Source of the DNA: an uncultured bacterium
Lineage (GTDB): Bacteria; Margulisbacteria; Marinamargulisbacteria; SXXA01
Direction of reading: 5' to 3'
DNA length: 64,000 nucleotides
Assembly (NCBI GenBank): GCA_903864835.1
Contig: CAIPHK010000004.1
Coordinates: 64,448-128,447 of the forward strand
A program made the position numbers and the translations under genes. How positions within the stretch are numbered: position 1 is the stretch's first letter; every line of letters starts with the position of its first letter. The notes beneath the pieces are model-generated. The model did not search any database, had not been told where the DNA came from, and was given only the letters and a program-made list of their open reading frames with translations. This document shows, in pieces, positions 5,217 to 56,440 of the stretch.

Positions 5217-5612
5217 ATGAAACTCCCCGTCATAATCCATAAAGCCCCTAACGGAAAAATCCAGTCGATTGAGTATTCGCCGGGTGGATCTGAAGTTGCA
5301 TTGACTGAATTGCATGCGATATCACCGGATCAATTGCCTTGGGAGGGTGTGACCGATTTTCAACGTCGGGTCTATAGGGAATTGATGACGGTGCCTGCGG
5401 GGACCACCGTGTCGTATCAAGAGTTGGCGGCTCGGGTGGGGAATCCAAACGGCGCTCGGGCGATCGGTCATGCGGTGGCCCGCAATCCGTTTCTTTTTGT
5501 GGTGCCTTGCCACCGGGTGATTAAAAGTGACGGCGGGTTGGGTGGGTTTGCTTGTGGGCTTGAGGTTAAAAAACGGTTACTGGCGTTTGAGGCGGGGCGG
5601 GGGGCGTTTTAA
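5217..5612 (+). CDS. ogt: Methylated-DNA--protein-cysteine methyltransferase (O6-alkylguanine transferase).
   Basis: 131 aa with the active-site motif PCHRV and a DNA-binding helix-turn-wing. A 9-bp-stem hairpin ccccctctc...gagaggggg follows the stop at 5640 to 5690. Confidence 0.9.
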   Translation: MKLPVIIHKAPNGKIQSIEYSPGGSEVALTELHAISPDQLPWEGVTDFQRRVYRELMTVPAGTTVSYQELAARVGNPNGARAIGHAVARNPFLFVVPCHRVIKSDGGLGGFACGLEVKKRLLAFEAGRGAF

Positions 5613-5720
5613 GGTAACGGTTCGTTTGCCGTTGCACTCACAAGGATTTTCACCCCCTCTCTGCATACAAAGTGGGTGGAGAGGGGGCAGGGGGTGAGGT
5701 TACTTAATGTAACGATCCAT

Positions 5721-5849
5721 TTACTTCGTGGAGCCTAAGCCAGTGGAGGCCTTGCTCGATTTTTTGTCGCGTTTGGCGGCCTTTTTTTCTTTAGGAGATA
5801 GTGCTGCCACTTTCTTGATGTCCTTCTTCTTATCTTGTCCCTTTGCCAT
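5721..5849 (-). CDS. Small, highly basic 42-aa protein (MAKGQDKKKDIKKVAALSPKEKKAAKRDKKSSKASTGLGSTK). It is not in the ORF track because it is under 60 aa.
   Basis: An ATG with the RBS ggag 9 nt upstream on the minus strand, a TAA stop, and a Lys-rich composition. Confidence 0.35.
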   Translation of the reverse strand: MAKGQDKKKDIKKVAALSPKEKKAAKRDKKSSKASTGLGSTK

Positions 5850-6795: not shown

Positions 6796-7960
6796 GTAAA
6801 ATTCCTCTTTCGGGCTGGAGTTCAAATAGACTATCAGTGGACGGAACATGGTGGGACGGGTCGTATTGGGTACTCAATTTATCGAGACGCCGTTCGATGG
6901 TCCGTGTTTTTCGGGTGGCGTCTTCGATGCTTTGCCCGGCTTCATGAAGTTTTTTCTGGGTTTTTTCTAATAATGCCCCAAATTTTCCAAATTCGCCTTG
7001 GATTACCGTCAGCAGTTGCCATACTTCCCCAGTGCGTTTTTCAATCGCCAAGGTCTTGAACCCCAGTTGCAAGCTGCTCATGATGGCGGCCAGGGTGGTT
7101 GGGCCAGCAATAATAACTCGGTATTGAGATTGAAGGAGATCTTGCAATCCCCCCAATCGGAGCGCCTCAGCAAACAACCCCTCGGTGGGCAAAAACATGA
7201 TCGCAAAATCGGTACTAAAAGGAGGATGAATATATTTTTGGGCAATGGACTTGGCCTGAATTTTTAACGTGGCGTCTAGCTCTTTATGGGCCGCATCGAT
7301 GGCGTCTTGATTTCCATCGTCGATAGCGGTGATTAGCCTATGGTAGGATTCTTGAGGAAATTTTGAATCAATGGGAAGCCAGACGTTGTCCCGGTCGGTT
7401 TTCCCGGGGAGTTTAATTGCATAGTCCACAAAATCGGTTCCATTGGGAATGATTTTGATGTTTTTGGCATATTGATCTGGGGTCATCACCTGTTCAAGCA
7501 ATGCGCCAAGCTGGACTTCGCCCCAAGTTCCTCGGGTTTTGACGTTGGTGAGCACTCGCTTTAAGTCGCCGACCCCTTGCGCCAATTGTTGCATTTCGCC
7601 GAGCCCTTTGTGGACTTGTTCTAATCGATCCGACATCAGTTTGTAGGTCTCGCCCAACCGTTTTTCAAGAGTGGTCTGGAGTTTTTCGTCGACCGTTACC
7701 CGGATGTGCTCCAACTTGAGAGCCGTATCGCTCTGAATATCTGTGAGTTTTTTTTCAATAGTATTATTTAATGCCATGACCTGATTCGAAAATAATTCAA
7801 TCAGATGCTGTTGGCGGGTCAAATGGGCCACAAGCGTCGTCGACGTTTGCGTCCCTTGCGATTGCGTCGCTGTGCGAATATCGTCGCGAAGCTGCTTTGA
7901 AATCACCAACACCAAGCCAAACCCCAGCGCTGTAATAATAAGGACGGTTACTATTACCAT
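6785..7960 (-). CDS. rmuC: DNA recombination protein RmuC.
   Basis: 391 aa with an N-terminal TM segment, coiled-coil regions, and a C-terminal RmuC nuclease-like domain. Confidence 0.8.
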   Translation of the reverse strand: MVIVTVLIITALGFGLVLVISKQLRDDIRTATQSQGTQTSTTLVAHLTRQQHLIELFSNQVMALNNTIEKKLTDIQSDTALKLEHIRVTVDEKLQTTLEKRLGETYKLMSDRLEQVHKGLGEMQQLAQGVGDLKRVLTNVKTRGTWGEVQLGALLEQVMTPDQYAKNIKIIPNGTDFVDYAIKLPGKTDRDNVWLPIDSKFPQESYHRLITAIDDGNQDAIDAAHKELDATLKIQAKSIAQKYIHPPFSTDFAIMFLPTEGLFAEALRLGGLQDLLQSQYRVIIAGPTTLAAIMSSLQLGFKTLAIEKRTGEVWQLLTVIQGEFGKFGALLEKTQKKLHEAGQSIEDATRKTRTIERRLDKLSTQYDPSHHVPSTDSLFELQPERGILHDA

Positions 7961-9626: not shown

Positions 9627-10187
9627 ATGAATTCGAAGCGTGTTTTATGGGGTATTTTAGCTGTTGTAGCGGTTGTCTTTTTTTGGGGACTATCGATTAA
9701 TAACCGATTGGTTACCCTTGATGAAGCGACCACTTCACAGTGGGCTCAGGTTGAGAATCAATTGCAACGTCGGTACGATTTGATACCGAATTTGGTTAAC
9801 TCTGTGAAGGGTTATGCGGCCCATGAATCTAAAGTATTTAGTGCGATAGCAGAGGCCCGTTCCAAATTGGCAGGCGCAAAAACCCCCGATGCAAAAATTG
9901 CTGCATCAGGTCAGATGGAATCTGCATTATCCCGGTTGTTGATGGTGGTAGAAAACTACCCGAACTTGAAGGCAGACCAATCATTTAATCGATTGATGGA
10001 TGAGTTGGCCGGATCTGAAAATCGGATTTCGGTTGAACGTAATCGATACAATGAGCATGTAAGAGAATACAATCTGAACATGCGCAAATTTCCTAATCGA
10101 ATTATTGTGGGAATGTTGGGTTTTAAAGCCCGGTCCTATTTTGAAGTCGACGCAAAGGCAAAAGAAACCCCTAAAGTCGAATTCTAA
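9627..10187 (+). CDS. lemA: LemA family protein.
   Basis: N-terminal TM segment followed by a LemA domain. The RBS ggaggg lies 10 nt upstream of the ATG at 9627. Confidence 0.85.
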   Translation: MNSKRVLWGILAVVAVVFFWGLSINNRLVTLDEATTSQWAQVENQLQRRYDLIPNLVNSVKGYAAHESKVFSAIAEARSKLAGAKTPDAKIAASGQMESALSRLLMVVENYPNLKADQSFNRLMDELAGSENRISVERNRYNEHVREYNLNMRKFPNRIIVGMLGFKARSYFEVDAKAKETPKVEF

Positions 10188-10942
10188 TGGAGTTGCTTCG
10201 CTTGGAATCTGTGGACTACACCATTTCAGGCGAAACGATCCTCGATAACGTGAGTCTGTCCATTGGGGGGAAAGATTTTTTATCGATAATTGGACCCAAC
10301 GGTGGGGGGAAGTCGACCTTACTTCAGTTGATCGTTGGGCTTATATCACCGAGCCGAGGCACCATCTCCTTGATGGGAGAGGCGCCCAAAGTGGGACGGT
10401 CAAAAATTGGATACCTTCCCCAATATACCGAATTTGATCGTGCATTTCCGATTTCGGTCGAAGAAACGGTCGCATTGGCAACCCTCCAAAATCGGTGGCG
10501 TGGATTTTTATCGAAGGGCGACTTTGATCGCGCCCATCATTGGTTAGGTCAGGTAGGGGCGGTGCATTTGGCGAAACGAAACCTCCGCCACTTATCCGGG
10601 GGCGAGCGTCAGAGGGTGTTATTGGCGCGTGCGTTGATTAATGAGCCCCAGCTCCTCATATTGGATGAGCCAACCGCGGCAGTGGATACGGAAGGCGAGA
10701 AACAGTTTTATGATATTTTAGGAGAGTTGAATCATACGATGGCCATTATTATGGTAACCCATGATTTGACGGCCGTATCGGCGATTAGCCGGTCAGTGGC
10801 CTGTTTAAATAAACGATTGTATTACCATGGCGATGCCCATTTGGAGCATGCCGATATTGCCGAAGCGTATCAGTGTCCAGTAGATCTTATTGCGCATGGG
10901 CATCCCCATCGAATTTTCCCCCGGCATGATCACGCTTCTTAA
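10187..10942 (+). CDS. Metal (Zn/Mn) ABC transporter ATP-binding protein.
   Basis: Walker A GPNGGGKST, the ABC signature LSGGERQRV, and Walker B LLILDEP, all ZnuC/MntB-like. The start overlaps the lemA stop. Confidence 0.85.
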   Translation: MELLRLESVDYTISGETILDNVSLSIGGKDFLSIIGPNGGGKSTLLQLIVGLISPSRGTISLMGEAPKVGRSKIGYLPQYTEFDRAFPISVEETVALATLQNRWRGFLSKGDFDRAHHWLGQVGAVHLAKRNLRHLSGGERQRVLLARALINEPQLLILDEPTAAVDTEGEKQFYDILGELNHTMAIIMVTHDLTAVSAISRSVACLNKRLYYHGDAHLEHADIAEAYQCPVDLIAHGHPHRIFPRHDHAS

Positions 10943-11729: not shown

Positions 11730-11962
11730 TACCTTGGCTCTTTTAATCCAAACTCACCCTCTCCCCCAAATTTCCCGTTCGGGGAATTTGAGGATCTCCC
11801 TCTCTACGCACAAGCGCATAGAGGGAGAAAAATAAAATATAAATGATCCAATTTGCCCCCTCTATCCGAATTTTCGGAGAGAGGCGGGCCCCTCAATAAA
11901 ATACCGGGGTCCCCGTAAAAGTACACTGAACGTAGCGATGGTTTTTAATACGCCCAAAAAAT

Positions 11963-17926: not shown

Positions 17927-19186
17927 TTGAACGTCAGGGACATTTTTGGGTATCCTACCACGCCTATGAAACCACTCAATCGTTACGTTAATGCCCTTGT
18001 TGTGATCGCGGCTCTTGGCTATTTTGTTGATATTTATGATCTTATTTTGTTCAGTATTGTCCGTGTGCCCAGCTTAAAATCGTTAGGACTTACCGGCTCG
18101 GAATTATTTGATAGTGGGATTTTTTTGCTCAATACCCAGATGGCCGGGATGTTGGTCGGTGGGTTGTTGTGGGGCATTTTAGGCGACAAGCGTGGACGGG
18201 TCTCGGTTTTATTTGGATCGATTTTGATGTACTCGCTTGCCAATATCGCCAACGGATTTGTTCAGTCAGTTGAAATGTATGCGTTGTTACGCTTTGTCGC
18301 CGGGGTTGGGTTGGCTGGGGAGCTAGGGGCGGGCATCACGTTGGTTGCGGAAACATTGCCCAAAGAGACCAGAGGGTGGGGCACCATGATTATTGGAGGG
18401 GTTGGGATCAGTGGTGCGATTCTCGCCGGGGTTATTGCAGAACATTTTGATTGGCGAACCTGTTATTTCATTGGGGGCGGATTGGGATTATTGCTACTGT
18501 TACTTCGGGCGGGTGCGTATGAATCGGGGATGTTTAAGGCCACAACAGAAAAATCCGTTGCTCGGGGACAGTTTTTTCAGTTGTTCGCATCCAAAGAACG
18601 ATTTTTGAGGTACTTGTGTTGTATTTTGATTGGGATGCCGACCTGGTATGTCATTGGCATTTTGGTGACCTTTTCTCCAGAATTGGGGGCGGCCTTGGGT
18701 GTGCCGGGGACGATTGTGGCGGGGCGATCCGTCATGATGGCCTACGCGGGGTTGGTGGTTGGGGATATTATTAGCGGATTATTAAGTCAGTATTTGCGGT
18801 CCCGTAAGACGGTCATCGGTGCCTTTTTGGGTGCGACCGTCGTGGGCGTTGCGGGCTACTTCTTGTTTCCCTATCATTCAGTCGCTCAATTTTATTGGGC
18901 CTGTTTTGGTTTGGGTATTTCGGTCGGATACTGGGCGTTGTTTGTGACGGTCGCTGCGGAGCAATTTGGCACCAATTTAAGAGCGACTGTGGCGACGACG
19001 GCCCCTAATTTTATTCGGGCATCGTTGATTCCTCTGATTATCTTGTTTGGATATTTAAAGATTTGGATGGGTCCGATTCATTCGGCAATGGTTGTCGGGG
19101 CAATCAGTATCGGAATTGCCGCTGTTGCCCTGGCGCCGATGAAGGATACGTTTGATACGGATTTGGATTATATCGAGGGAGAATGA
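17927..19186 (+). CDS. MFS transporter.
   Basis: About 12 TM helices with MFS motifs such as GxLxDRxGR-like GILGDKRGR. The true start may be the Met at about 17966. Confidence 0.8.
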   Translation: MNVRDIFGYPTTPMKPLNRYVNALVVIAALGYFVDIYDLILFSIVRVPSLKSLGLTGSELFDSGIFLLNTQMAGMLVGGLLWGILGDKRGRVSVLFGSILMYSLANIANGFVQSVEMYALLRFVAGVGLAGELGAGITLVAETLPKETRGWGTMIIGGVGISGAILAGVIAEHFDWRTCYFIGGGLGLLLLLLRAGAYESGMFKATTEKSVARGQFFQLFASKERFLRYLCCILIGMPTWYVIGILVTFSPELGAALGVPGTIVAGRSVMMAYAGLVVGDIISGLLSQYLRSRKTVIGAFLGATVVGVAGYFLFPYHSVAQFYWACFGLGISVGYWALFVTVAAEQFGTNLRATVATTAPNFIRASLIPLIILFGYLKIWMGPIHSAMVVGAISIGIAAVALAPMKDTFDTDLDYIEGE

Positions 19187-19214
19187 GTCACCGGTTCCCA
19201 CCCGTTGCCTTGTG

Positions 19215-19268
19215 GCTTCACCTCACCCCGGCCGGAGGGCGGGGTGAGGTGGGGCACCTTTTTTATTT
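19215..19268. terminator. Bidirectional Rho-independent terminator between convergent transporter genes.
   Basis: A perfect inverted repeat cacctcaccccg-gccggagggc-ggggtgaggtg is followed by ttttttatt. On the opposite strand an A-run follows. Confidence 0.65.
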
Positions 19269-19273
19269 AGGGG

Positions 19274-20692
19274 TTATCCCTCACCGCTAAACATATCCAA
19301 TCGACTCGTATCCACCTTACGCCCATAAAACATATAGATCACGCCCCCAATAGCCATCCACACCACTAACCGGATCCACGTATCTTTGGGGAGGGCTGCC
19401 ATTTGACCGACGGCGGCCAAGATCCCCAAGATTGGGACCAGCGGAACCCACGGGGTTCGAAATGGACGGGGTAGGTCGGGGCGGGTTTTTCGTAGGACCA
19501 GAATCCCGGCGCACACGATTGCAAAGGCAAATAAGGTTCCAATCGAAACTAGCTCGCCCAACAATCCGATAGGGAAAAGGCCCGCGACTAGCATGGATGC
19601 GCCACCGGTGAGGACTGTCGTTAACGACGGCGTTTGAAATTTAGTGTGGACATTGGCCAATCCCTTGGGTAGAAATCCATCCGTGGCCATCGCAAAAAAG
19701 ATGCGGGATTGACCCATCAACATGACTAAAATGACGGAGCTGAGGCCGCAAATGGCCCCAAGTTTGATTAGCGGGCGTAACCATACCAATGATGCGCCCA
19801 TGGCATTGACCCCAACGGCAATCGGATCGGGGACGTTGAGTTGAGTGTAATTTACAACACCGGTTAAAACGTACGCGACCAAGATGTAGAGGATGGTCGA
19901 AATGGCCAATGATCCCAATATCCCAAACGGCAGATCTTTTTGGGGATTTTTACATTCCTGGGCAGCGGTAGAGACCGCGTCAAACCCAATGTACGCAAAA
20001 AAGATGACTGCGGCGGCCCGAAAGACACCACTGACACCAAATATTCCGGTGGTCCCCATATTGGGAGGAATAAATGGGGAAAAATTGGCGGTATCCACGT
20101 GGCTAAGTCCAAATCCAATAAATAGCAAGATGACAGACAATTTGACCACGACGATAATGGTGTTAAACCGAATAGACTCTTTAATTCCGAGGTACAGCAA
20201 CACGGATACCAAAAAAATGATTCCCATCGCTGGCAAATTTAAGAATGCGCCAGTCAAATGCCATCCGCCGGTTGGGTCGTATGACAATGGTGCTTGGGCA
20301 AGGTGAGCAGGGACTATAATTCCAAAGTCTCTTAGAAAACTAACGACATACCCTGACCACCCAACCGCTACGGTCGAGGCCGCAAAAAGATACTCCAATA
20401 TGAGATCCCACCCGATAATCCATGCGGCGGTCTTCCCTAATGTGGCTAACGCATACGTATATGCACTTCCGGCCCGCGGAATCATGGACGCAAATTCGGC
20501 GTAACACAGCCCCGCCAACAGACAAACGACCGCCGCAATCACAAACGACAAGATGATGGCTGGGCCGGCATACTGGGCGGCGGCGGTGCCTGTAAGTACA
20601 AAAATTCCCGCTCCGATAATAGCGCCGATTCCTAAATTGACCAGATTCCAACGACCCAAAACACGTTTTAACTGAGGACTAGTGCTTTCCAT
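19274..20692 (-). CDS. Amino acid permease (APC superfamily).
   Basis: 472 aa with 12 TM helices and an APC-family N-terminal signature region. Confidence 0.85.
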   Translation of the reverse strand: MESTSPQLKRVLGRWNLVNLGIGAIIGAGIFVLTGTAAAQYAGPAIILSFVIAAVVCLLAGLCYAEFASMIPRAGSAYTYALATLGKTAAWIIGWDLILEYLFAASTVAVGWSGYVVSFLRDFGIIVPAHLAQAPLSYDPTGGWHLTGAFLNLPAMGIIFLVSVLLYLGIKESIRFNTIIVVVKLSVILLFIGFGLSHVDTANFSPFIPPNMGTTGIFGVSGVFRAAAVIFFAYIGFDAVSTAAQECKNPQKDLPFGILGSLAISTILYILVAYVLTGVVNYTQLNVPDPIAVGVNAMGASLVWLRPLIKLGAICGLSSVILVMLMGQSRIFFAMATDGFLPKGLANVHTKFQTPSLTTVLTGGASMLVAGLFPIGLLGELVSIGTLFAFAIVCAGILVLRKTRPDLPRPFRTPWVPLVPILGILAAVGQMAALPKDTWIRLVVWMAIGGVIYMFYGRKVDTSRLDMFSGEG

Positions 20693-23295: not shown

Positions 23296-23464
23296 TGTTT
23301 AAAATAGGGTCATAATGGGTACAACTATGCCTCGGGGGGGACCCATCTTCTTTTTCCACTTTTTTTCCACTTCAAGTTCCTTTTTTCTTCAATTCTAATT
23401 TCAAGCATGTACCTCGGCCCCCCCCCGACAATTTAATTGTTACCCCCAGAAAGTCCTTCACTGC

Positions 23465-23680
23465 GTTCAGTGTACTTTCCGAGGGACCCCCGTATTTTTA
23501 GCCCTCGCGGACTACCCTTCTGTAATAGTCTGGCCTTTCGGCCAGTTTTTTTGTTTTTGTGGGTTCCTGTTTTTCTCCCTCTATGCGGATTTGCGTAGAG
23601 GGTGAGTGGTTGCGGTTTTCTGTGGTACTTCCCGGGGGACCCCACTGTTTTATTGCAGACTTTTACGGTGCCGAAGGACT
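23465..23680. repeat. Composite intergenic repeat block. Family C (cgttcagtgtacttt..gggaccccc) occurs at 23465..23500 and as an inverted partner at 23612..23680. The block flanks a terminator hairpin (ctggcctttcggccag followed by a T-run) and a ccctctatgcg...cgtagaggg hairpin. A related block in the opposite orientation lies at 11790..11940.
   Basis: cgttcagtgtacttt at 23471..23485 is the reverse complement of aaagtacactgaacg at 11913..11927. Both loci also carry ccctct(c)tacgc...gcgtagaggg-type hairpins and ggggtcccc/gggaccccc motifs. Confidence 0.65.
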
Positions 23681-23698
23681 TCTAATTTATCGCTATAT

Positions 23699-23796
23699 CT
23701 GCCGTCTAACGGACCCAGGATAAAATATCCGACGGCCCTTCTCTGTTGACGCAGTCAATGGAGAGGGGTGGCCGTAGGCCGGGGTGAGGTGGGGGA
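23699..23796 (+). repeat. Repeat family A, copy 1 (about 100 bp: ...ggataaaatatccgacNgcccttctctgTTGACGyAGTCAAtggagaggggtgGccgtaggccggggtgaggtgggg).
   Basis: Near-identical to 26673..26770. The core is an imperfect palindrome and the GC-rich tail is cggggtgaggtgggg. Confidence 0.8.
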
Positions 23797-25005
23797 CAAC
23801 AAATTTAACCGATTAAGTCTATTTGGTATATTCGGGGTCTTCGTTTCTACCTTTAGTCGTTCAATCGTGTCCCGTATCAAATACCCAGGTTCAACCCAAA
23901 TTCCTTTAGTTACCGTTGATGCGCCGTTGGGCTTGTCCGGTCGGAGGACGTTAATTGAAATCATGCTGTAGCTTAAAATGGTGATTGCTGCGGCCAAGGC
24001 GATCTTTTTTTGGGTACCCAGAATGTGGGCGAGCCAATATATGGCAAACGGAAAACAGGGGAGCAGGTACTCGTTTTCGAATGGATATTGGGCAAATAAT
24101 CCGTGGAAAATAACGATCATTCCAATTCCTACCCATAAGGTGGCCCGGATCTGTGGGGTCTTGATTTCTGTGCGGGTCTTCCACGAAATAACGAGTAGAC
24201 TTGCTAGAATGATGAGCTGGGGAAGTCCCCAGAAATAGATCGATTTGTACACAAATCTGCCAATATAAGAGGCCAGACTCCAATCGCCTTCCCACGTGGA
24301 ATTGACGCCTAGAAATCCAAATCCCATGTCGAGGAATCGAATCAGATAAAATAGTCCGCCCAGGGCCCATCCCGCGGTCAAAATCACGAGTCTCTGGCGC
24401 CAACCGGCGAGCCGTTGGACCAACTCCACGGTGATGAGAACAGGGAATATGATAAAGGATGCCAATCGGATGCCAACGGCAAACCCCATCGCTGCGATCG
24501 AGATCTCCCATCGTTTCCGACGAAAGGCCCAAAATCCAAGAATTAGGCTGGATACTGCCCAGTTGTAGTCAATCAAACTTGCGGCATTGACCCATATGAT
24601 CGGATGCAAGGCATAGACCGTCGCCCAGAGTCGGGGGCGGGGGATATGGTCTTCTTTTAGAATTTTATATAAAAATATCGCGCCCATTACCGTCATCAGG
24701 GCGGTGAATATGTTGACTAGGGTGATTCCCCCAATGCTCCCGATTCCGAGCGAAATGGTATCGTGGACCCAATATCCGGGGTTAAGACGCCATCCAAAAT
24801 AGTGGCCGGTAGAGAGCCATTGGCGGACAGTACGAATCACCAATAAACTGTCAGAATCAGATCCTGGCCCCATAAAACAGAGGGGGAGATAGGCTAAGAA
24901 AAGCCCGATTGCCCAAATAACGGTGCGCTTATTTTCTGCGATACCGTGAACGACGCGACGCACCGGAATTGGCCCTTTCTGGATTACGGATCCCATCAAT
25001 TTCAT
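23755..25005 (-). CDS. Polytopic integral membrane protein, possibly a GT-C-fold glycosyltransferase-like protein (tentative).
   Basis: More than 10 predicted TM helices. The ORF's first 13 codons lie inside repeat family A and are likely artefactual. The true start is probably near MKLMGS at about 25005. Confidence 0.4.
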   Translation of the reverse strand: MKLMGSVIQKGPIPVRRVVHGIAENKRTVIWAIGLFLAYLPLCFMGPGSDSDSLLVIRTVRQWLSTGHYFGWRLNPGYWVHDTISLGIGSIGGITLVNIFTALMTVMGAIFLYKILKEDHIPRPRLWATVYALHPIIWVNAASLIDYNWAVSSLILGFWAFRRKRWEISIAAMGFAVGIRLASFIIFPVLITVELVQRLAGWRQRLVILTAGWALGGLFYLIRFLDMGFGFLGVNSTWEGDWSLASYIGRFVYKSIYFWGLPQLIILASLLVISWKTRTEIKTPQIRATLWVGIGMIVIFHGLFAQYPFENEYLLPCFPFAIYWLAHILGTQKKIALAAAITILSYSMISINVLRPDKPNGASTVTKGIWVEPGYLIRDTIERLKVETKTPNIPNRLNRLNLLSPTSPRPTATPLH

Positions 25006-25672
25006 ACTGGGCCAAATTGCGGTAGTGACCGGGTTCAAGGTGGCTCAATGGAATTTGTCCATATCTCACCCGGATAAGACGGATGACGGCAAGGCCCAAT
25101 TTGGTGATCATTCGACGGATTTGGCGGTTTTTACCTTCGTTCATCCGAATGATAAATCGGTTGGATTCTAGAATTTCAATGGCACTTCGTTTGGTCTTTT
25201 TTCCAAAAATCGTGACGCCTTCTTCGATTCGTTCCGCCATTCCCCCAGTGAATTCCCCCGACACGGTCACGACATACTCTCGCTCGTGTTGGGCGGCCAA
25301 CGCATGTTTGGCGAATACGCCGTCGTCAGTGAGTAAAATTAATCCTTCGGAATCTTTGTCCAATCGGCCAATGGTATGGAGCTTGGAGTATTCTTTAGGG
25401 AGCAAGTTTCGGATCTCTCGTTCCCCTTTGGCCGGTAGGTTGCTCACGATGCCGACGGGTTTGTGAAATGCAATATATTTATAGGAGGGGGTCGCTTTTT
25501 CAGGTGTTTCAATCGATAACTGGTCCCGGTCGGGATCAATCATGGTGCCCAATTCGGTGACGACTTTACCGTTAATTCGGATCCGGCCGGCAACCAGCCA
25601 GCGCTCCGCCTCGCGACGGGAACATAGGTCAAGTTCGGATAAGTATTTTTGAATTCGGATTGGAGATGCCAT
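24929..25672 (-). CDS. rluB: Pseudouridine synthase, RsuA/RluB family.
   Basis: N-terminal S4 RNA-binding domain (IQKYLSELDLCSRREAERWL), the catalytic-Asp motif HTIGRLDKDSEGLILLT, and an Arg/Ser-rich C-terminal tail. Confidence 0.85.
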   Translation of the reverse strand: MASPIRIQKYLSELDLCSRREAERWLVAGRIRINGKVVTELGTMIDPDRDQLSIETPEKATPSYKYIAFHKPVGIVSNLPAKGEREIRNLLPKEYSKLHTIGRLDKDSEGLILLTDDGVFAKHALAAQHEREYVVTVSGEFTGGMAERIEEGVTIFGKKTKRSAIEILESNRFIIRMNEGKNRQIRRMITKLGLAVIRLIRVRYGQIPLSHLEPGHYRNLAQYEIDGIRNPERANSGASRRSRYRRK

Positions 25673-25709
25673 TATACTAGGCGTCTATATTACCTTCCGG
25701 AGCATTCCC

Positions 25710-25964
25710 ATGGCAAAGCTAAAACTGGATCTTCACGATATCTTTAATAAAGGTGGGAAAATTGAGACGGAATTGAACCGGATAATTCAACAAGCTGTCG
25801 AAAAACGAATCGAATTGGTTGAAATTATCCCCGGGAAAGGATCCGGCCAACTTAAAAAGTCCGTACTGCGATTTTTGGCCCGGCCTGAAATTAAGTCGCT
25901 ATATCACCGCGTCGAAAAAGATGATAAAAATTTTGGACGAATCTTTGTACATTTTAGGTTTTAA
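25710..25964 (+). CDS. Smr-domain protein (small MutS-related).
   Basis: 84 aa whose N-terminal LDLHD motif resembles the Smr LDLHG signature, with a following Gly-rich loop. Confidence 0.6.
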   Translation: MAKLKLDLHDIFNKGGKIETELNRIIQQAVEKRIELVEIIPGKGSGQLKKSVLRFLARPEIKSLYHRVEKDDKNFGRIFVHFRF

Positions 25965-26010
25965 TTAGATTGGTCGTTTTACACAATTCCCATTATCAAG
26001 GAGACATCAG

Positions 26011-26400
26011 ATGAGCAGCAAAATTAACTCCATATTTACCGACAAAGCACCCAATCCCGTCGGCCCCTACAGTCAGGCGATTCGAGTTGAAAATTTTGTT
26101 TTTATTTCCGGTATGATTGCGCTTATTCCGGGTACTAATGACCTTGATGTATCGTCATTCGAAGCGGAAACCACCCGCGTTTTGGATAACCTTTCTGCAG
26201 CCATCATTGCGGCCGGGTCGTCGATGGAACACGTTGCGAAGGTGACGATTTATTTGAGAAATATGGACGATTTCCCACGGTTAAATGCGATCTATGCCAC
26301 TTATTTTAAAGAACCGTATCCGGCTCGGGTGACCGTCGAGGTGTCCCGGTTGCCTAAAGATGTGTCCGTTGAAATCGAGGCGATTGCGGTTGTGGTGTAA
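26011..26400 (+). CDS. ridA: RidA/YjgF family reactive-intermediate deaminase.
   Basis: 129 aa with a YjgF/chorismate-mutase-like fold signature (PxGPYSQA...RVTVEV). Confidence 0.9.
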   Translation: MSSKINSIFTDKAPNPVGPYSQAIRVENFVFISGMIALIPGTNDLDVSSFEAETTRVLDNLSAAIIAAGSSMEHVAKVTIYLRNMDDFPRLNAIYATYFKEPYPARVTVEVSRLPKDVSVEIEAIAVVV

Positions 26401-26445
26401 CTCACCGCTCCCAAACCTTCCCCTTTGTAAGCAGTAGCGTCCGGT

Positions 26446-26527
26446 CTTTCTGAGAATGGCCGGGCCTGCGGCCACCCCTCTCCATTGACTGCGTCAACAG
26501 AGAAGGGCTGTAGGTAATATTTTATTT
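26446..26527 (-). repeat. Repeat family A, copy 2 (reverse orientation). It forms an inverted pair with copy 3.
   Basis: ccacccctctccattgactgcgtcaacagagaagggctg is the exact reverse complement of the family-A core. Confidence 0.8.
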
Positions 26528-26672
26528 GGTTTGAAGTTTGGTGCAGCGCTGTCTAAACTTCTTGTCATAATAGCAATGGGACTTGCCCGTTTAATGTGTC
26601 CAACGACTTCTATTTATCGAATTGGATGGCGAATTTCATAGTGCAAAAAATAATATCAAAACTATCGTTATC

Positions 26673-26770
26673 TCTGGCGTCTAACTGATCCAGGATAAAA
26701 ATATCCGACAGCCCTTCTCTGTTGACGTAGTCAATGGAGAGGGGTGGCCGTAGGCCGGGGTGAGGTGGGG
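26673..26770 (+). repeat. Repeat family A, copy 3.
   Basis: It matches copy 1 at about 90% over 98 bp. Confidence 0.8.
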
Positions 26771-26810
26771 CAAGACGAGTCTTTTTTTAGCTCGTTTTCT
26801 TGCGCACTGG

Positions 26811-27602
26811 TTATGAGAACGGCCGGGGGGAGAGGGTGAGTTTTTCCAACGCACCATCCCATAACGCAAGGCGTGACCTCAACGCATCTTGGACCGCGGA
26901 GGTGGCCGATGCCCATTTTTCGGGATCGATCCCACATAATTGGGTCACCATCCGCATTGCCAGTGGCCCGTGTTCGTCTTGGTCGAGGTCGATATGGCGC
27001 TGGAGATAATATTGGAAACCGGCCAGTTCGGAGGGGAATTGGGTCCCCAGATTTCGGACGATTTCAGTAAACATGTCGGGAATTAGATTTTCTCGTCCAA
27101 ACGCAAATACTGCCGCTTGGTCGTGGAGGGGATGGTCAGTCACGATGCGCCAGGTATCGAGTATAAAACCAGCGGCGGCCGGCGTGCTGATTTGCAACGG
27201 GGCAATCGCGTCGGGTAATGAGTGGCCCTCGTGGATATTTTGAACCAATTCCGTCATGGCGTGAGTGGGGGCACCGGCGAGGGTCATTGCGTTTAAGTAC
27301 AATTCGAAATGGCTGATGGCGGTGCCGTTGGGGTCGATGTCGGATTCTTCCGCCAACACAATTTCATTGATCATGCGTCGGGAGGTGGGGTCGGATGACG
27401 GAATCCACGGAATATCGATACAGGTGAGTTGATGTTGAAGCGATTTTAATAGGGTCATAAAGTCCCAAACGGCGGCAACGTGATGGGCCATAAAACATTG
27501 CATGGCGGGGAGGCTGTGGAGTGACAGGAAGAGGGGATGTTGAATAATTTTTTCCCGAAGTGGGGAAATGTCAGCCTGGAGTTGGTCGAGTGGGGTGGTC
27601 AT
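26811..27602 (-). CDS. Hypothetical protein, tentatively DUF3050 / haem-oxygenase-like fold.
   Basis: The 263-aa ORF has good coding statistics. The family assignment comes from memory of sequence flavour only. Confidence 0.45.
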   Translation of the reverse strand: MTTPLDQLQADISPLREKIIQHPLFLSLHSLPAMQCFMAHHVAAVWDFMTLLKSLQHQLTCIDIPWIPSSDPTSRRMINEIVLAEESDIDPNGTAISHFELYLNAMTLAGAPTHAMTELVQNIHEGHSLPDAIAPLQISTPAAAGFILDTWRIVTDHPLHDQAAVFAFGRENLIPDMFTEIVRNLGTQFPSELAGFQYYLQRHIDLDQDEHGPLAMRMVTQLCGIDPEKWASATSAVQDALRSRLALWDGALEKLTLSPRPFS

Positions 27603-38600: not shown

Positions 38601-40046
38601 TATGACGTCGTGGTCGGAACACTGGGACCCAGTGGATTTTCAAAGATCCGAATGCATCGCGCCGAAGGTGTTGCCGCATCACGGTCCGTTAAAGACACGG
38701 TGAATGCGTTGCTGGGGGACGCAATTGGGGGATCATGTAACTCAGGCTCCTGCCAGGGGTGTACCATAGGGATTACGGATATCGAAGATCTGAGTCGATT
38801 TGGGTTAGCCTGTCTCCAAAAAAATAGTGACGTTACCCGGGTGTTTATACCGGAATCTCCTGTTTTGCCCCATATGGTTAGCAACGTATCGACTCACTTC
38901 AAAGCCCAAATCGATGATCGATCCAGCTGTGGGATCGGAGTGCATTCATTTTCAACGGCGTCCCCGGCGCACACTCAGGAAATATTGCGCCATCTCGCGC
39001 GAGATCGATCACGAGGCGCGGGGATTCAGGGCCAAGGCGATGGCGCTGGGGTGGTGCTGTCATTGGATCATGGGTATTTCAAAGCGCGAATATTCCATGA
39101 ACAAAAAAAAGTGCTTCCTGACCGGTTTGGCGTCATCCAGATTTTTGCAGATGAATCAGATATTGACCGAATTGAAGAACGGATAAAAGACCGGGAATTA
39201 GAGATCCTCGCGACTCGAAAAGTACCTATGAATGCCTCCAATTTTCATTCTCCTGACCGCCGTCACGTGGATGTGTATCAGATTATCGTCCCCGTAACGG
39301 ATTACACAAAAAATCAACTGAAAGAGATGTCAATTAACGCCGGATCCTGGTTACCCAATCGATACGATCTCTGTTCGGCATCGACCGAGTGGATTACCTA
39401 TAAATTGGCCGGTTATTCTGATGAATTAACGGTATTTGAAGACCTAACCTCTGATCAGCACTATCACACTCAATTCGGACTATCCCACGCCCGATTTAGT
39501 ACAACGACATTACCTCATCCTGGTCGTGCGCATCCTCATTTAGGATTAATTCATAACGGCGAAATACAGACCAAGGCTGCGATTATCAAATGGTTGGTGT
39601 CCAAAGCGATTGAACTTAAAACACGCAAGATACCGATGATGGTCGATGTCGCTGAATTACAAAGTGGGTCAGACTCTGCCGTTCTTCAAATTTATATTTC
39701 CGCTTTAGAATTGCTTTATCCGGAGTATACGTTACAAGAGCACCTTACGTTAATTTTTAGGTCCCACAACGGAAATCCAGCCATCGTGGCGCGGGGGAAA
39801 TCTGATGGGCTCCCTTTGGTGAGCGGACCGTGCAACATGGCGATGATTGGCGACGAGGGAGAGATCGTATTTGTGCGGGCTGAAAATGGGTTTAGACCCG
39901 CGACGCTCGTTCAATCGGAGTCGGACCTATCGATTACATCCGCAAGATATTGCCCTACATTCGACGAAATTCAACAGGTTCAGGAAGGGGCAATCATTTC
40001 AGTTGTGAATGGAAAAGTTATCTTGGACCAGGATACCACGGGATAA
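35619..40046 (+). CDS. Giant 1475-aa multidomain protein. It has an N-terminal region of about 480 aa with unknown function, an FprA/adrenodoxin-reductase/GltD-like FAD-NAD(P)H oxidoreductase domain, and a class-II (Ntn) glutamine amidotransferase domain of the glutamate-synthase large-subunit type.
   Basis: A Rossmann motif VAVVAIVGDGIAAMKSA. A second dinucleotide motif NGQGNAALDVARMLAR (compare FprA GNGNVALDVARIL). The FAD return segment VFANGVRLTSAMAAGQAVTG. GATase-2 marks are SCGIGVHSF...GDGAGVVL and ...HARFSTTTLPHP...HNGEIQT (compare GltB HNGEINT). The GltS FMN/synthase core is absent. The 5' 250 nt overlap the ATPase remnant, so the true start may be a downstream Met. Confidence 0.7.
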   Translation: MTGTVVVMTGKIQSITPKGSGMVLVPVAIGLSTTPIPDDVEIKETLIQALNEFEGIGTVAKWDEGRIRSELGILSISDLTIESDILPLSKSPDGPLRSDQVRAGWTVDALELIQQISDDEPTTSMGDGRKVGDRQVMSYGVFRLPFAQLTRPPIDAASEAILINMTVTLRLDGTTVPFLTPVLDSVQFDRLARSSSVHHVTVPSGDVSTGDGSLDAQMVHHRLRSWANDAATIHSRSKSPADRVVIVHHYAGKESRHLPAWIPLSYLRHSFDDIHLSLQIVISTDDSIEPHSADVLLNLLGVSLIHPRLVERTFRDTPSLLEVIPNMVVSPEDRFDHYRTGMTKALKRIMAKNGDTDMTTHIGSKTVEAYLLDEKMAAQLGTRSIMGQSRFGLQFFVEMAESNRQNAGSHPPTLEQVGLYQFVLGGVKFSWDSTNLIPLLDTLQSGKTPQFNPVSEDIEDIGSDKGGLSYSKFKATYANICDSQRITLGSHLRPITKVAVVAIVGDGIAAMKSALEAAEVETVKSVIIIGKMPLPGGRLRYAVAPDHVHTKQLADSHLDQILTHPKVRLYTGIKASGDLVQELHDMGCMVVVAPGSATRKLTPDDWGRHVVTGSKMVAWYNSKPNKHGKGHRDCPVSLEHSTLIINGQGNAALDVARMLARSPNNAEFKSQIRPEVFDTLSTKKVTTLLVLGRQPHYKTRFSATELAQLRELSQQGQFTIESESSLDKDIHKINAQLVELGWPFDVSLTPDYIRNATRLQALLAAVAISMAAAAGLERFSECANLVQTVAFFDHYSLTQISDRGDSMPSVGCPVIRFKFGTVISDIDPSDESVNVHFSGGRHDSITCGGIVACVGFLQGKEANGIRVDDSGDVFANGVRLTSAMAAGQAVTGRGTVGESTAGLEMGIQRRLSSQKWISPNGDRWVSDRYPQAFTTDEVRMIQAAVRKGDGYTVSMEGLTQWQAAYRFGKSVMPTGSISYTAAASDPKKMAPPVSYDVVVGTLGPSGFSKIRMHRAEGVAASRSVKDTVNALLGDAIGGSCNSGSCQGCTIGITDIEDLSRFGLACLQKNSDVTRVFIPESPVLPHMVSNVSTHFKAQIDDRSSCGIGVHSFSTASPAHTQEILRHLARDRSRGAGIQGQGDGAGVVLSLDHGYFKARIFHEQKKVLPDRFGVIQIFADESDIDRIEERIKDRELEILATRKVPMNASNFHSPDRRHVDVYQIIVPVTDYTKNQLKEMSINAGSWLPNRYDLCSASTEWITYKLAGYSDELTVFEDLTSDQHYHTQFGLSHARFSTTTLPHPGRAHPHLGLIHNGEIQTKAAIIKWLVSKAIELKTRKIPMMVDVAELQSGSDSAVLQIYISALELLYPEYTLQEHLTLIFRSHNGNPAIVARGKSDGLPLVSGPCNMAMIGDEGEIVFVRAENGFRPATLVQSESDLSITSARYCPTFDEIQQVQEGAIISVVNGKVILDQDTTG

Positions 40047-40099
40047 AAGGTGCCACCTTGGACCGCGTTCTCGACCGGTGTTGTTGCTCCGGCACATAT
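40025..40099 (+). repeat. Repeat family B, copy 2. It contains the last codons and the TAA stop of the 1475-aa gene.
   Basis: See copy 1. Confidence 0.8.
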
Positions 40100-40726: not shown

Positions 40727-41146
40727 TTGTCGGTTGTCTTGTTGGGCGCTTTGTCTATGCCCGCGCTTGCGATTCCCAGGTCTACTCTTATCGGTATCCA
40801 GATGGGTTTTGTGAATGGAGTGTATTTGTCGGTTCCTGAGGAAGGTCAAAATTTTTGGTCTGGGGCCATCGGGTTCCAAGACAACGATATTGCAGTGGCG
40901 GGTCAATATGGAAAAGTATATTCCTTCCCGAATTCGGCCAGTCTGTACTGGTATTATGGATTATCGGGATTTGCTAGACTTGATCCCAATACACCGGTTG
41001 TTGGCGGCGGTATTCCGTTTGGGATTTTGATTCCTCTCCATGAGGGGCCTCAAATTTTCTTGGAGGTGACGCCGTATATCTCGGTCTCGGATAATAAAAT
41101 GCAGACTGGATTTGCACCGTCGGTTAAGGTTGGGGTTCCGTTTTAG
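40727..41146 (+). CDS. Small outer-membrane beta-barrel protein (OmpW/OmpA-like, 8-strand class).
   Basis: Signal peptide ...ALSMPALA, alternating amphipathic strands, and a C-terminal ...VKVGVPF ending in Phe. The track start is a TTG codon. Confidence 0.55.
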   Translation: MSVVLLGALSMPALAIPRSTLIGIQMGFVNGVYLSVPEEGQNFWSGAIGFQDNDIAVAGQYGKVYSFPNSASLYWYYGLSGFARLDPNTPVVGGGIPFGILIPLHEGPQIFLEVTPYISVSDNKMQTGFAPSVKVGVPF

Positions 41147-41201
41147 GTTCCAGGAAACTACGGTTGAAAACCGTTTCAAACCGGTCGGACGGATATTAAA
41201 A

Positions 41202-44385: not shown

Positions 44386-44450
44386 GTTCCAGGATACCAC
44401 GATTAAAAAGGTGCCACCTTAGACTCAAAAGTGGAGATGGCACCTTTGAA
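44386..44450 (+). repeat. Repeat family B, copy 3, a variant with a strong terminator-like hairpin aaaggtgcca...tggcaccttt. A fragment at 41151..41173 is a fourth, partial copy.
   Basis: The first 27 nt are shared with copies 1 and 2. A 10-bp perfect stem follows. Confidence 0.7.
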
Positions 44451-51322: not shown

Positions 51323-51360
51323 CTCTCACCCCCTCATATCAAGGGTTTGGACGATTGGCG

Positions 51361-55362: not shown

Positions 55363-56391
55363 GTGTCCATGACATTATTAAGTTTGGTAATCGGGATTGT
55401 GATTTCGTTTTTTCTGTCCCACAAGTTAAAGAAAAAGTCGGGCCAACTTTTTGGTTTATTGTCGAAGGCCTGTGTGATCGGGGTGGGATTTGGTCTTCAT
55501 GTGGAGGACTTGCAAGTGGTGGATCTTCCACGAATTGGCATGATTGTCGGGGGGATCGGGATTACGATTGTGGCGGGTTATTTCTTGGGACGGCTGATGC
55601 GGATGTCGGCATCCATGGCGACGCTCATTACCGTGGGCACTGCGATTTGCGGGGGAAGTGCAATTGCAACGGTGGCGCCGCTTATTCGTGCAAAACGGCG
55701 AGATGTCGTGGTGGCACTGGCTTCAATTTTTTTATTAAATAGCGTGGCCATAATCATTTTTCCCGTTGTAGGGCGGGCCGTTGGATTGTCGGATTCGATG
55801 TTTGGCTTATGGGCGGGTATTGCGATTCATGATACGAGTAGTGTCATCGGCGCGGCGTCAATTTTTAGTGAAGCGTCGCTTAAAATAGCGGTGATTATCA
55901 AGGCGATTCGGACCCTGTTTATCGTGCCAATTGCGATTGGTATTTCCGTCTTGAGTCGTCGAAAATCAGAACCGACTGGGTTTCCATGGTTTTTGGGGAT
56001 TTTTTTAATTGCGATCGGCGTGGTGCAATTTTTACCAGCGGGAGAACCCTTTTTTCACATGGTTTATAGTGTCTCTAAGCAGATGACGGTGGTTCCTATT
56101 TTTTTACTGGGCACTTCATTTTCTGCCAAGGAAACGGAAGAAGGTGGGGTGAAGCCCCTCGTTTTTGCGAGTGTGTTATGGGTGACTGTCGCGGTAGCGG
56201 TTTTGGGAGTTATTTTTTTAACGAAAGTTCACCAGCGTCCATCCTGGGGTCCACCTCACCCCGCCCTACGGGCACCCCTCTCCACGCACTTCGTACGTAG
56301 AGAAGGGCTGTCGGATATTTTAAGAACGGATCGCTATCCGTCTGTGCAGATTAATACAAATATAACCTCCAGCCCTTCTCTGTTGACGTAG
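55363..56391 (+). CDS. YeiH/UPF0324-family membrane protein (putative sulfate exporter family).
   Basis: A polytopic protein in the classic divergent arrangement with a LysR gene. The last 45 codons or so run into a family-A inverted repeat, so the real stop is probably upstream or the tail is artefactual. Confidence 0.7.
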   Translation: MSMTLLSLVIGIVISFFLSHKLKKKSGQLFGLLSKACVIGVGFGLHVEDLQVVDLPRIGMIVGGIGITIVAGYFLGRLMRMSASMATLITVGTAICGGSAIATVAPLIRAKRRDVVVALASIFLLNSVAIIIFPVVGRAVGLSDSMFGLWAGIAIHDTSSVIGAASIFSEASLKIAVIIKAIRTLFIVPIAIGISVLSRRKSEPTGFPWFLGIFLIAIGVVQFLPAGEPFFHMVYSVSKQMTVVPIFLLGTSFSAKETEEGGVKPLVFASVLWVTVAVAVLGVIFLTKVHQRPSWGPPHPALRAPLSTHFVRREGLSDILRTDRYPSVQINTNITSSPSLLT

Positions 56392-56428
56392 TCAATGGAG
56401 AGGGGTGCCCGTAGGGCGGGGTGAGGTG
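56251..56428. repeat. Repeat family A copies 4 (reverse, 56251..56345) and 5 (forward, 56371..56428). They form a near-perfect inverted repeat separated by about 25 bp.
   Basis: The 32-nt arms cacctcaccccgccctacgggcacccctctcc and ggagaggggtgcccgtagggcggggtgaggtg are exact reverse complements. Copy 4 carries a variant core (cacgcacttcgtacgtag). Confidence 0.8.
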
Positions 56429-56440
56429 AAGTCACAAAAT

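Follow-up and report, generated by a model that had tools for sequence, protein, structure and literature searches.

Structured repeat doublets at convergent gene ends of an uncultured Margulisbacteria lineage, probably a REPIN/MITE-like mobile element

The 64,000-nt stretch analysed here in full (the window; positions 64,448 to 128,447 of contig CAIPHK010000004.1, assembly GCA_903864835.1, from an uncultured bacterium of the Marinamargulisbacteria) carries a family of structured repeats of about 100 bp, family A, some of which stand as inverted pairs. We consider it probable, at roughly 60%, that family A is a non-autonomous mobile doublet akin to REPINs (inverted doublets of repetitive extragenic palindromes, REPs) and miniature inverted-repeat transposable elements (MITEs), because its behaviour matches that of REP doublets, REPINs and related repeats. 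The repeats are built as doublets with a conserved and strand-asymmetric structure, one pair is an insertion flanked by a target duplication, and the family is restricted to one lineage as far as it was found. A reading of the sequence alone had proposed dispersed structured elements of the MITE, REP or bacterial interspersed mosaic element (BIME) type, which the spread of the loci, an empty site and relatives without copies now support. Five canonical copies (c1 to c5), a divergent copy (c6) and a palindrome consisting only of tails (c0) were counted in the window; they are given below with the parts of the one reconstructed insertion.

5620 to 5703, plus strand: c6, divergent solo copy with hairpin 1 and the GGGGTGAGG tail, hairpin 2 missing
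19210 to 19257, no strand: c0, 33-nt imperfect palindrome CACCTCACCCCGGCC-GGA-GGGCGGGGTGAGGTG
23681 to 23796, plus strand: c1, solo arm of type I, extended at the 5' end and carrying a GGATA-AAA-TATCC hairpin, hairpins 1 and 2 and the tail GGGGTGAGGTGGGG
26451 to 26464, no strand: left copy of the 14-nt target-site duplication, TGAGAATGGCCGGG, single in the empty site of the relative L034
26465 to 26528, minus strand: c2, type II arm at the left end of a 349-nt insert, its boundary taken from the empty-site alignment
26529 to 26655, no strand: spacer between c2 and c3, unconserved, with no similarity to the spacers of other pairs
26656 to 26770, plus strand: c3, type I arm with a 5' extension, its core 94-97% identical to c1 and to copy L010a
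26771 to 26813, no strand: 43-nt non-repeat segment at the right end of the insert, its final TTA being the new stop of the minus-strand DUF3050 gene
26814 to 26827, no strand: right copy of the 14-nt target-site duplication, TGAGAACGGCCGGG, with GGGGAGAG (a GGGGWSAS match) directly after it in the target
56247 to 56345, minus strand: c4, type I arm with a substituted yet pairing inner stem (ACGTAC-GAA-GTGCGT) and a GCCC/GGGC hairpin 2
56352 to 56435, plus strand: c5, type II arm, 100.4 bits with the covariance model

All five copies noted in the sequence-only reading were recovered. A search of the window for direct and inverted repeats found family A at the coordinates given there, and the 35-nt core CCCTTCTCTGTTGACGYAGTCAATGGAGAGGGGTG has four exact matches in the window compared with none in 100 shuffles. 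A covariance model for the family (R1), trained on seven copies, scored the five canonical copies at 90-105 bits, the matches of the first four being 23715-23798 on the plus strand for c1 (100.5 bits), 26445-26528 on the minus strand for c2 (90 bits), 26691-26774 on the plus strand for c3 (105.3 bits) and 56245-56328 on the minus strand for c4 (94.9 bits). The loci first described could be kept, but the starts of c1 and c3 had to be moved about 45 nt further 5', to 23681 and 26656. The model also matched c6 (5633-5708, plus strand, 38.6 bits, E about 1e-8). The palindrome c0, in an 87-nt convergent junction (19186 to 19274), consists of both outer tail modules of a pair abutted, with the hairpin-1 arms absent, and is possibly an excision footprint or a minimal family member.

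The insertion of c2 and c3 can be reconstructed from the relative L034, in which the DUF3050 protein is 97% identical to that of the window and the flanking DNA 86-92% identical. The site is uninterrupted in L034 (...GTCCGGTCTTTCTGAGAACGGCCGGGGGGAGAGGGTGAG..., also written as ...TCTGAGAACGGCCGGGGGGAGAGGG...), and at this place the window carries a 349-nt insert made of c2, the spacer, c3 and 43 further nucleotides, with the 14-nt target duplication TGAGAAYGGCCGGG on both sides; the whole c2/c3 pair therefore entered as one piece. It left the DUF3050 protein eight residues shorter and with a new stop codon. The gap between the RidA and DUF3050 genes is 0-2 nt in relatives with DUF3050 proteins 87% and 75% identical, versus 410 nt in the window, and in the 76% relatives 11 nt separate the epimerase gene from the convergent gene next to it. 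No copy of family A was found in roughly 48 kb from relatives at 58-93% identity, whose convergent junctions measure -4 to 11 nt. The epimerase-side junction of the relatives was considered as a clean empty site and rejected, since the repeats are absent there but the neighbouring genes differ. Between the RidA and DUF3050 stops, L034 (2745-2857, compared with window 26401-26450) also has an 85-nt segment that is absent from the window and, with its complementary ends (AAGGGCAGGGCTT...AAGCCCTC), may be another small insertion.

The five loci in the window, the copies on other contigs, the empty site and the absence from relatives together indicate dispersed insertions rather than one duplicated segment, and the window copies are not the only ones, with further loci on contigs L010/L031 and L032. 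Metagenome contigs of the same strain often end within copies (at 26748, 26720 and 26492), as expected of a multi-copy repeat. On the same-strain contig L003 (1-80), 80 nt of unrelated G/A-rich sequence is joined to c1 within hairpin 2, probably an assembly chimera formed via another repeat copy. As for target-site duplications, beyond the 14 nt at c2/c3 one of 11 nt is suggested at c6 and none is visible elsewhere. The c6 flanks are a direct repeat, TTAAGGTAACG (5609-5619) and TTAATGTAACG (5704-5714), identical at 10 of 11 positions; its left copy includes the stop of the upstream gene (open reading frame (ORF) 5217-5612), and by our own estimate the chance expectation for such a repeat is about 0.08. 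Because the solo c6 may have its own duplication, single arms may also be mobile.

All four pairs seen, two in the window and two on L010/L031, are head-to-head heterodimers of a type I arm (AAAATATCCGACAG...) and a type II arm (AAATATAACCTACAG...), with the A/T-rich ends turned inward and the G-rich tails outward. Their spacers (23, 67, 123 and 162 nt) have no sequence in common. The pairs are 178 to about 500 nt long and have no ORF of their own, and their inverted arms, 63-82 nt in length, are 82-89% complementary. Arms of the same type are similar across loci (94-97% for c1, c3 and L010a, 96% for L010b and L031d, 93% for c5 and L032a), identity within pairs is lower (79-93%), and arms do not cluster by pair. 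Long hairpins had been claimed for the inverted pairs, and both window pairs are indeed predicted to fold into stems of about 70 bp or more (z-score about -12); the second L031 pair folds over about 500 nt (z -18.6). The arms at 56 kb had been described as exact reverse complements over 32 nt, which is accurate for 56252-56283 and 56397-56428 and does not extend along the whole arm, because the inner stems differ (ACGTAC-GAA-GTGCGT versus GTTGAC-GTA-GTCAAT). On both outer sides of the second L031 pair the tail unit is repeated in tandem, at 10040-10160 (ACCTCACCCCGGCCT, about 6.7 times) and 10420-10525 (GGGGTGAGGT, about 8 times), arrays that could form G-quadruplexes because the G-rich strand has four or more runs of four G with 6-nt loops.

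The 14-nt duplication, the asymmetric insert ends and the microhomology at the left junction point to either a DDE-type MITE or templated insertion. Under the former, family A would derive from a DDE-type insertion sequence (IS) by internal deletion, with type I and type II arms as its left and right ends, a parent transposase and a long duplication. This is possible, if doubtful. The non-coding units of 178-500 nt with long terminal inverted repeats (TIRs), the verified 14-nt and suggested 11-nt duplications, the two distinct arm types kept across loci and the variation in interior length, as from independent deletions, would all be in place in such an element. However, the outer ends are neither sharp nor conserved, the tail being missing from c2 and expanded into tandem arrays of about 100 nt in L031, most copies lack a visible target duplication, and the duplication lengths are unequal (11 versus 14 nt). 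Solo arms occur as well, one seemingly with its own duplication, the strand-specific wobble pairing described below is unexpected under double-stranded TIR recognition, and no parent IS was found in the sequence examined.

Templated insertion would mean spread without transposition, either by template switching during replication or by microhomology-mediated recombination, between gene ends that are G-rich and prone to form hairpins. The left c2/c3 junction does lie in microhomology (GGCCGGG in the target, CCCCGGCC in the canonical tail), the target is itself tail-like (GGCCGGGGGGAGAGGGTGAG), the insert ends are asymmetric with 43 nt of unrelated sequence, and the c4 inner stem resembles a hairpin of a different repeat family at 11796-11832, suggesting modular exchange. 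Nevertheless, conserved type I/type II heterodimers at four unrelated loci exceed what sporadic template switching would give, and arm identities of 90-97% between loci and a flanking direct duplication exceed its predictions, which makes such an origin very improbable.

Returning to the arms of the doublets, a full type I arm is about 115 nt long (c1 and c3 share about 45 nt of additional 5' sequence), and arms overall measure 84-116 nt. On the G-rich or sense strand the order is an A/T-rich 5' part (in c1 and c3 with the small GGATA-AAA-TATCC hairpin), a 16-bp hairpin (hairpin 1), a 4-bp hairpin (hairpin 2) and the tail GGGGTGAGGTGGGG. The arm c2 has no G-rich tail and starts inside hairpin 2 (GGCC-GCA-GGCC). 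The structure was aligned over 11 copies from seven loci (c1 to c6 and the copies on L010, L031 and L032). A G-N-A triloop closed by C-G forms the loop of hairpin 1 in nine of these copies (the exceptions being L010a with CCA and c6 with AAA) and of hairpin 2 in all ten copies that have one; C(GNA)G triloops are a very stable form in single-stranded DNA (PMC3201870).

The stem covariation suspected earlier is real: 99.1% of stem cells show standard pairing and four stem pairs have changed on both sides. In c4 the inner stem is wholly replaced, with ACGTAC/GTGCGT for GTTGAC/GTCAAT, and pairing is kept; hairpin 2 alternates between GGCC/GGCC and GCCC/GGGC among copies. Recent gene conversion within the pair, offered before for the arms at 56 kb, is not the sole account, since the GCCC/GGGC variant is also present in L031c and L032a and is thus a subfamily state. 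Wobbles occur at six positions; each is a G.U pair when the G-rich strand folds, the opposite strand having none, and for this reason the sense hairpin is predicted to fold more strongly than the antisense one (-18 to -21 compared with -8 to -9.5 kcal/mol), a difference that keeps its direction with DNA parameters. We take this bias as selection for one of the two strands to fold; alternatively, descent from a single master copy together with strand composition could have produced it.

Strand-specific folding, C(GNA)G loops in both hairpins, the doublet form and the tail motif point to an HUH enzyme. The arms might accordingly be REPIN/TIR-type repeats that move in single-stranded form as DNA hairpins, the gene for their transposase, a RAYT-like Y1 (HUH) enzyme of the TIRYT subclass, lying in another part of the genome; this is a sub-hypothesis on mechanism that we hold only tentatively and regard as unlikely. 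In its favour, the tail GGGGTGAG, present in 10 of the 11 aligned copies (not in c2) and in both halves of c0, fits the motif GGGG[AT][CG]A[CG] of inverted repeats flanking TIRYT genes (PMC3733652, PMC6006769), the reconstructed target has GGGGAGAG directly beside the duplication, and the doublet form and the c0 palindrome mirror REPINs and their excision footprints (PMC3337134). On the other hand, the 8-mer GGGGWSAS is a weak match on its own (24 occurrences in the window versus 15 expected), the arms are 85-115 nt long with a 16-bp stem compared with 20-40 nt for REPs, and GTAG occurs only within hairpin 2 (GGCC-GTA-GGCC), never terminally, and is replaced in three of ten copies by GCAG (c2) or GAAG (L031c and L032a). 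No Y1_Tnp gene was detected among 57 ORFs of the window and eight of L010. Single-strand transposition of the IS200/IS605-type Y1 kind makes no target duplication, and the 14 nt flanking the c2/c3 insert are unlike that chemistry. Lone tail motifs also stand just past stops in convergent junctions without family A (GGGGTGAG at 51325-51332 and GGGGAGAG at 11759-11766), and these could be remnants or preferred targets.

The placement of the repeats is equally regular. Of the 59 gene junctions in the window, 11 are convergent, 12 divergent and 36 tandem; the family A loci, five in number, fall without exception in convergent ones, for which our own calculation gives a probability of about 1e-4 if junctions were hit randomly. 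The repeats had been said to lie always 3' of genes, which is correct for all five window loci but not for an L031 pair (10148-10438) located between divergent genes; the L010 pair occupies the convergent junction of a methyltransferase gene and a hibernation-factor gene. Each arm's tail faces the 3' end of the nearest gene, and arm ends lie from within the ORF up to 46 nt from the stop. A UDP-glucuronate decarboxylase-like gene on the minus strand (56441-57373) has its stop 6 nt beyond the 3' end of c5, and 13 nt separate the end of c6 from the stop of a called 42-aa ORF. This lysine-rich ORF (MAKGQDKKKDIKK...; 5721-5849, minus strand) is downstream of dapA and is called as a gene in public assemblies.

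Some copies are read as protein. On the minus strand, ORF 23755-25038 takes its final 13 codons and its TGA stop from c1. ORF 55363-56391 reads c4 in frame, the repeat giving it its last 48 or so codons and its stop. All three ORF extensions over repeats had been judged spurious; this is plainly the case for 26731-26937, but the tails of 23755-25038 and 55363-56391 are genuine read-through, because neither ORF has an earlier stop and the repeats truly supply their C-termini.

Such a placement could also suggest a host module acting at the RNA level at convergent 3' ends, through bidirectional hairpin terminators, 3'-exonuclease blocks, RNase III sites, Rho entry sites on the C-rich transcript, or antisense small RNAs running outward from the middle of the pair, with mobility incidental. 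In the window the repeats are found exclusively in convergent junctions, the gene-proximal arms are all oriented such that the gene's transcript meets the C-rich strand first, transcripts from either side of a whole pair would form RNA stems of about 70 bp, the stems remain paired through compensatory changes, and type II arms hold a TCAACA-16-TATATT promoter-like match directed into the partner arm. Nonetheless, relatives lack any spacer at the same junctions (0-11 nt), so that a module of this kind would be dispensable, one pair sits between divergent genes (L031), and the better-folding strand is not the one co-transcribed with the adjacent gene. The terminator role envisaged in the sequence-only reading also fails, as no copy fits a hairpin with a U-tract: a consensus scan flagged none on either strand, and the U-rich run in gene sense comes about 10 nt past a mismatched stem. 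Its -35-like TTGACG is not accompanied by a matching -10, promoter-like matches occur at chance frequency, and no Rfam family matches. An RNA module as the primary role is therefore improbable, and RNA-level effects (blocking of exonucleases or read-through, RNase III substrates) are plausible as consequences of a mobile doublet.

Outside the window the family was sought in several collections. A pattern scan of one genome per GTDB species returned four matches, of which L010 is real, L013 has a similar layout and two are due to chance. Two matches of a repeat-peptide profile led to L031 and to L032/L033; L031 is identical to L010 over their shared stretch, L010/L031 carry two pairs, and on L032/L033 a type II arm stands alone, at an unrelated locus. 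The tetranucleotide signature of L010 correlates with that of the window at r = 0.95, the same value as between the window's own halves; this weakens L010 as independent evidence from another genome, and its source is probably the same species as that of the window or a sister species. Two scans of viral contigs found no family A, and among 5.8 billion proteins there was no match at E <= 1 to the six reading frames of the repeat joined into one peptide. In gathering mode Rfam matched tRNAs only, and in E-value mode its best match to the repeats was a plant miRNA-precursor model, caused by the long hairpin (63 bits versus a threshold of 230). A full-text literature search with the repeat sequences returned unrelated papers only. 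Overall, family A appears to be confined to one lineage.

In L013 (Cyanobacteria bacterium J06633_8, 6890-7053), hairpins CCCCTCTCC-loop-GGAGAGGGG, TG, CGC-TTCA-GCG and CGGGGTGAGG follow the same module order as family A and score 20-24 bits with R1. Protein P0245 contains an unrelated repeat-encoded peptide, PHPALRATLSQR, that resembles the family A frame. These likenesses hint at a much wider superfamily. We consider it quite improbable that one exists with the layout [CCCTCTC-stem ... GAGAGGGG]-[small GC hairpin]-[GGGGTGAGG] and with TIRYT-type HUH recognition of single-stranded DNA combined with a long staggered target duplication. If true, Y1-associated repeats would have a way of transposing that has not been described for them.

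Several results weigh against a mobile doublet. No transposase was detected with Pfam and NCBIfam among the 57 window ORFs and the eight ORFs of L010. The same search did pick up an integrase-like ORF beside a tRNA, which is unrelated to the repeats. A pattern scan of JGI metagenomes yielded four chance matches and no real family member, and the repeat-peptide profile, built on one open frame, had two true matches only among 1.84 billion cluster representatives; with a single real locus from the GTDB and JGI pattern scans, family A seems to be rare in public data. Moreover, there is one verified empty site only, and its insert is not a clean TIR-to-TIR unit because the ends are asymmetric, the left arm being tailless and the right end carrying 43 extra nucleotides. 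The left junction falls in a GGCCGG microhomology between target and tail, which fits templated or recombinational insertion equally well. Finally, no convincing target duplication was found at the pair at 56 kb, at c1 or at the L010/L031 pairs, where only 8-9-mers at chance level occur.

On balance we still favour a mobile doublet. Its unit would be a head-to-head doublet in which a type I and a type II arm, each about 85-115 nt long, flank a variable spacer, with the GGGGTGAGG tail open to tandem amplification and the paired arms able to form a stem of 70 bp or more. An enzyme acting in trans and encoded outside the window would insert the doublet, at the one reconstructable site with a 14-nt staggered target duplication. 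Copies would then persist almost only where they are least harmful, a few bases from stops and between convergent genes, and the solo arms and the tails-only palindrome may most simply be products of decay or excision. They would presumably be transcribed within 3' untranslated regions, replacing stops and adding short C-terminal tails, and the long hairpins probably stop 3' exonucleases or transcription reading in from the opposing gene, from which the host might benefit.

The c2/c3 pair documents a palindromic doublet as the unit of insertion, by an empty site, a target duplication and a conserved strand-specific structure, in an uncultured freshwater lineage in which such elements are uncatalogued. 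Copies of family A break metagenome assemblies, provide genes that are otherwise conserved with repeat-encoded C-termini and new stops, and inflate convergent junctions that measure 0-11 nt in relatives. How a TIRYT-like GGGGWSAS motif goes together with a target duplication of 14 nt poses a small puzzle of mechanism.

Other repeats and features were also found in the window. Family B, of about 150 nt (11796-11946, plus strand; 23450-23606, minus strand), likewise lies in convergent junctions, one copy directly beside c1. Its hairpin CTCCCTCTCTACGCAC-AAGCGCATAGAGGGAG resembles the variant inner stem of c4, a likeness that suggests modular exchange between families A and B. A third family (CCAGGATACCACGGGATAAAAGGTGCCACCTTGGACCGC...; 30999-31069, 40028-40099, 44389-44427 and 41142-41170) lies across the stops of four ORFs on the plus strand. 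Two of its copies share 100% identity over 39 nt, both of their ORFs ending in ...QDTTG*, and a short AAGGTG/CACCTT palindrome follows. An 845-aa ORF (27665-30202) without a Pfam or NCBIfam match contains two tandem duplications, one of 104 nt that is perfect (28403-28653) and one of 95 nt with 93% identity (29780-30015). A 1243-aa ORF (57419-61150), also without a family match, is absent from the 93% relative L023, where the epimerase gene lies beside the tRNA region. After the tRNA (61332-61416), a 39-nt repeat occurs four times at intervals (61447-61655), every copy containing a small CCCC-N-GGGG hairpin, and an ORF combining integrase and AAA parts (61884-62999) follows; a similar integrase stands beside the epimerase gene in L024/L025. 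The region 61332-62999 has the appearance of an integrated element's border, complete with arm-type binding sites.

Among known systems, family A comes closest in habit to REPs and REPINs, which lie outside genes and mostly 3' of ORFs, form inverted doublets and heterodimers with variable spacers within 20 bp of convergent ORF ends, supply stop codons and leave palindromic footprints on excision (PMC3337134, PMC3733652). As in REPINs and BIMEs (PMC3116915, PMC3337134, PMC3733652), the inverted doublets of family A fold into one long hairpin (all four pairs are head-to-head, with fold z of -12 to -18.6), the spacer is variable in length and unconserved, and the pairs are heterodimers of two arm variants. 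They lie near (about 20 bp from) the stops of convergent ORFs, except for the L031 pair between divergent genes, and supply stops or short in-frame tails; solo units exist, c0 resembles an excision footprint, and in one case (c2/c3) the doublet behaves as the insertion unit. The REP unit, however, is a palindrome of 20-40 bp with stems mostly of 6-9 bp (PMC3733652), whereas family A arms measure 84-116 nt with 16-bp and 4-bp stems and a G-rich tail, only c0 (33 nt) being REP-sized, and the terminal GTAG/CGTC tag of more than 90% of REP members is absent from their ends. By unit size and terminal tag, family A falls outside REPs proper. It further differs from REPINs in the 14-nt target duplication at its one reconstructed insertion, in the lack of a RAYT among the window and L010 ORFs and in its rarity in public data.

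The repeats flanking TIRYT genes ("TIRtrons"; subclass 2.1 TnpA_REP) share GGGG[AT][CG]A[CG] (PMC3733652, PMC6006769). Family A resembles them in having long inverted repeats rather than short REPs, in occurring as singles, dimers and clusters, and in its tail GGGGTGAG, which fits the motif; it differs in that no TIRYT gene was seen between or near its arms, and the likeness comes down to the 8-nt motif. MITEs are short non-coding elements (about 70-300 bp) bounded by TIRs. With Correia/NEMIS, ERIC, RUP and Nezha MITEs (PMC3733652) family A shares a non-coding length of 100-500 nt, inverted repeats, strong structure and, at its one verified site, a target duplication, and bacterial hairpin MITEs at gene ends are co-transcribed with neighbouring genes (PMC3733652). 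In contrast to the 15-30 nt of MITEs, its inverted repeats are about 70-85 nt long and internally structured, its termini are ragged or tandemly extended, and its 14-nt duplication is long and not evident at most copies. Like the palindromic elements of Rickettsia (RPEs) and the intragenic REPs of Opitutus terrae (PMC3733652), family A adds residues to otherwise normal proteins, but it replaces only the extreme C-terminus (13 and about 48 residues) instead of inserting internally. For an element of the REPIN/MITE kind, family A is unusual in its long structured arms, its type I/type II heterodimers, its extendable GGGGTGAGG tails and its 14-nt duplication.

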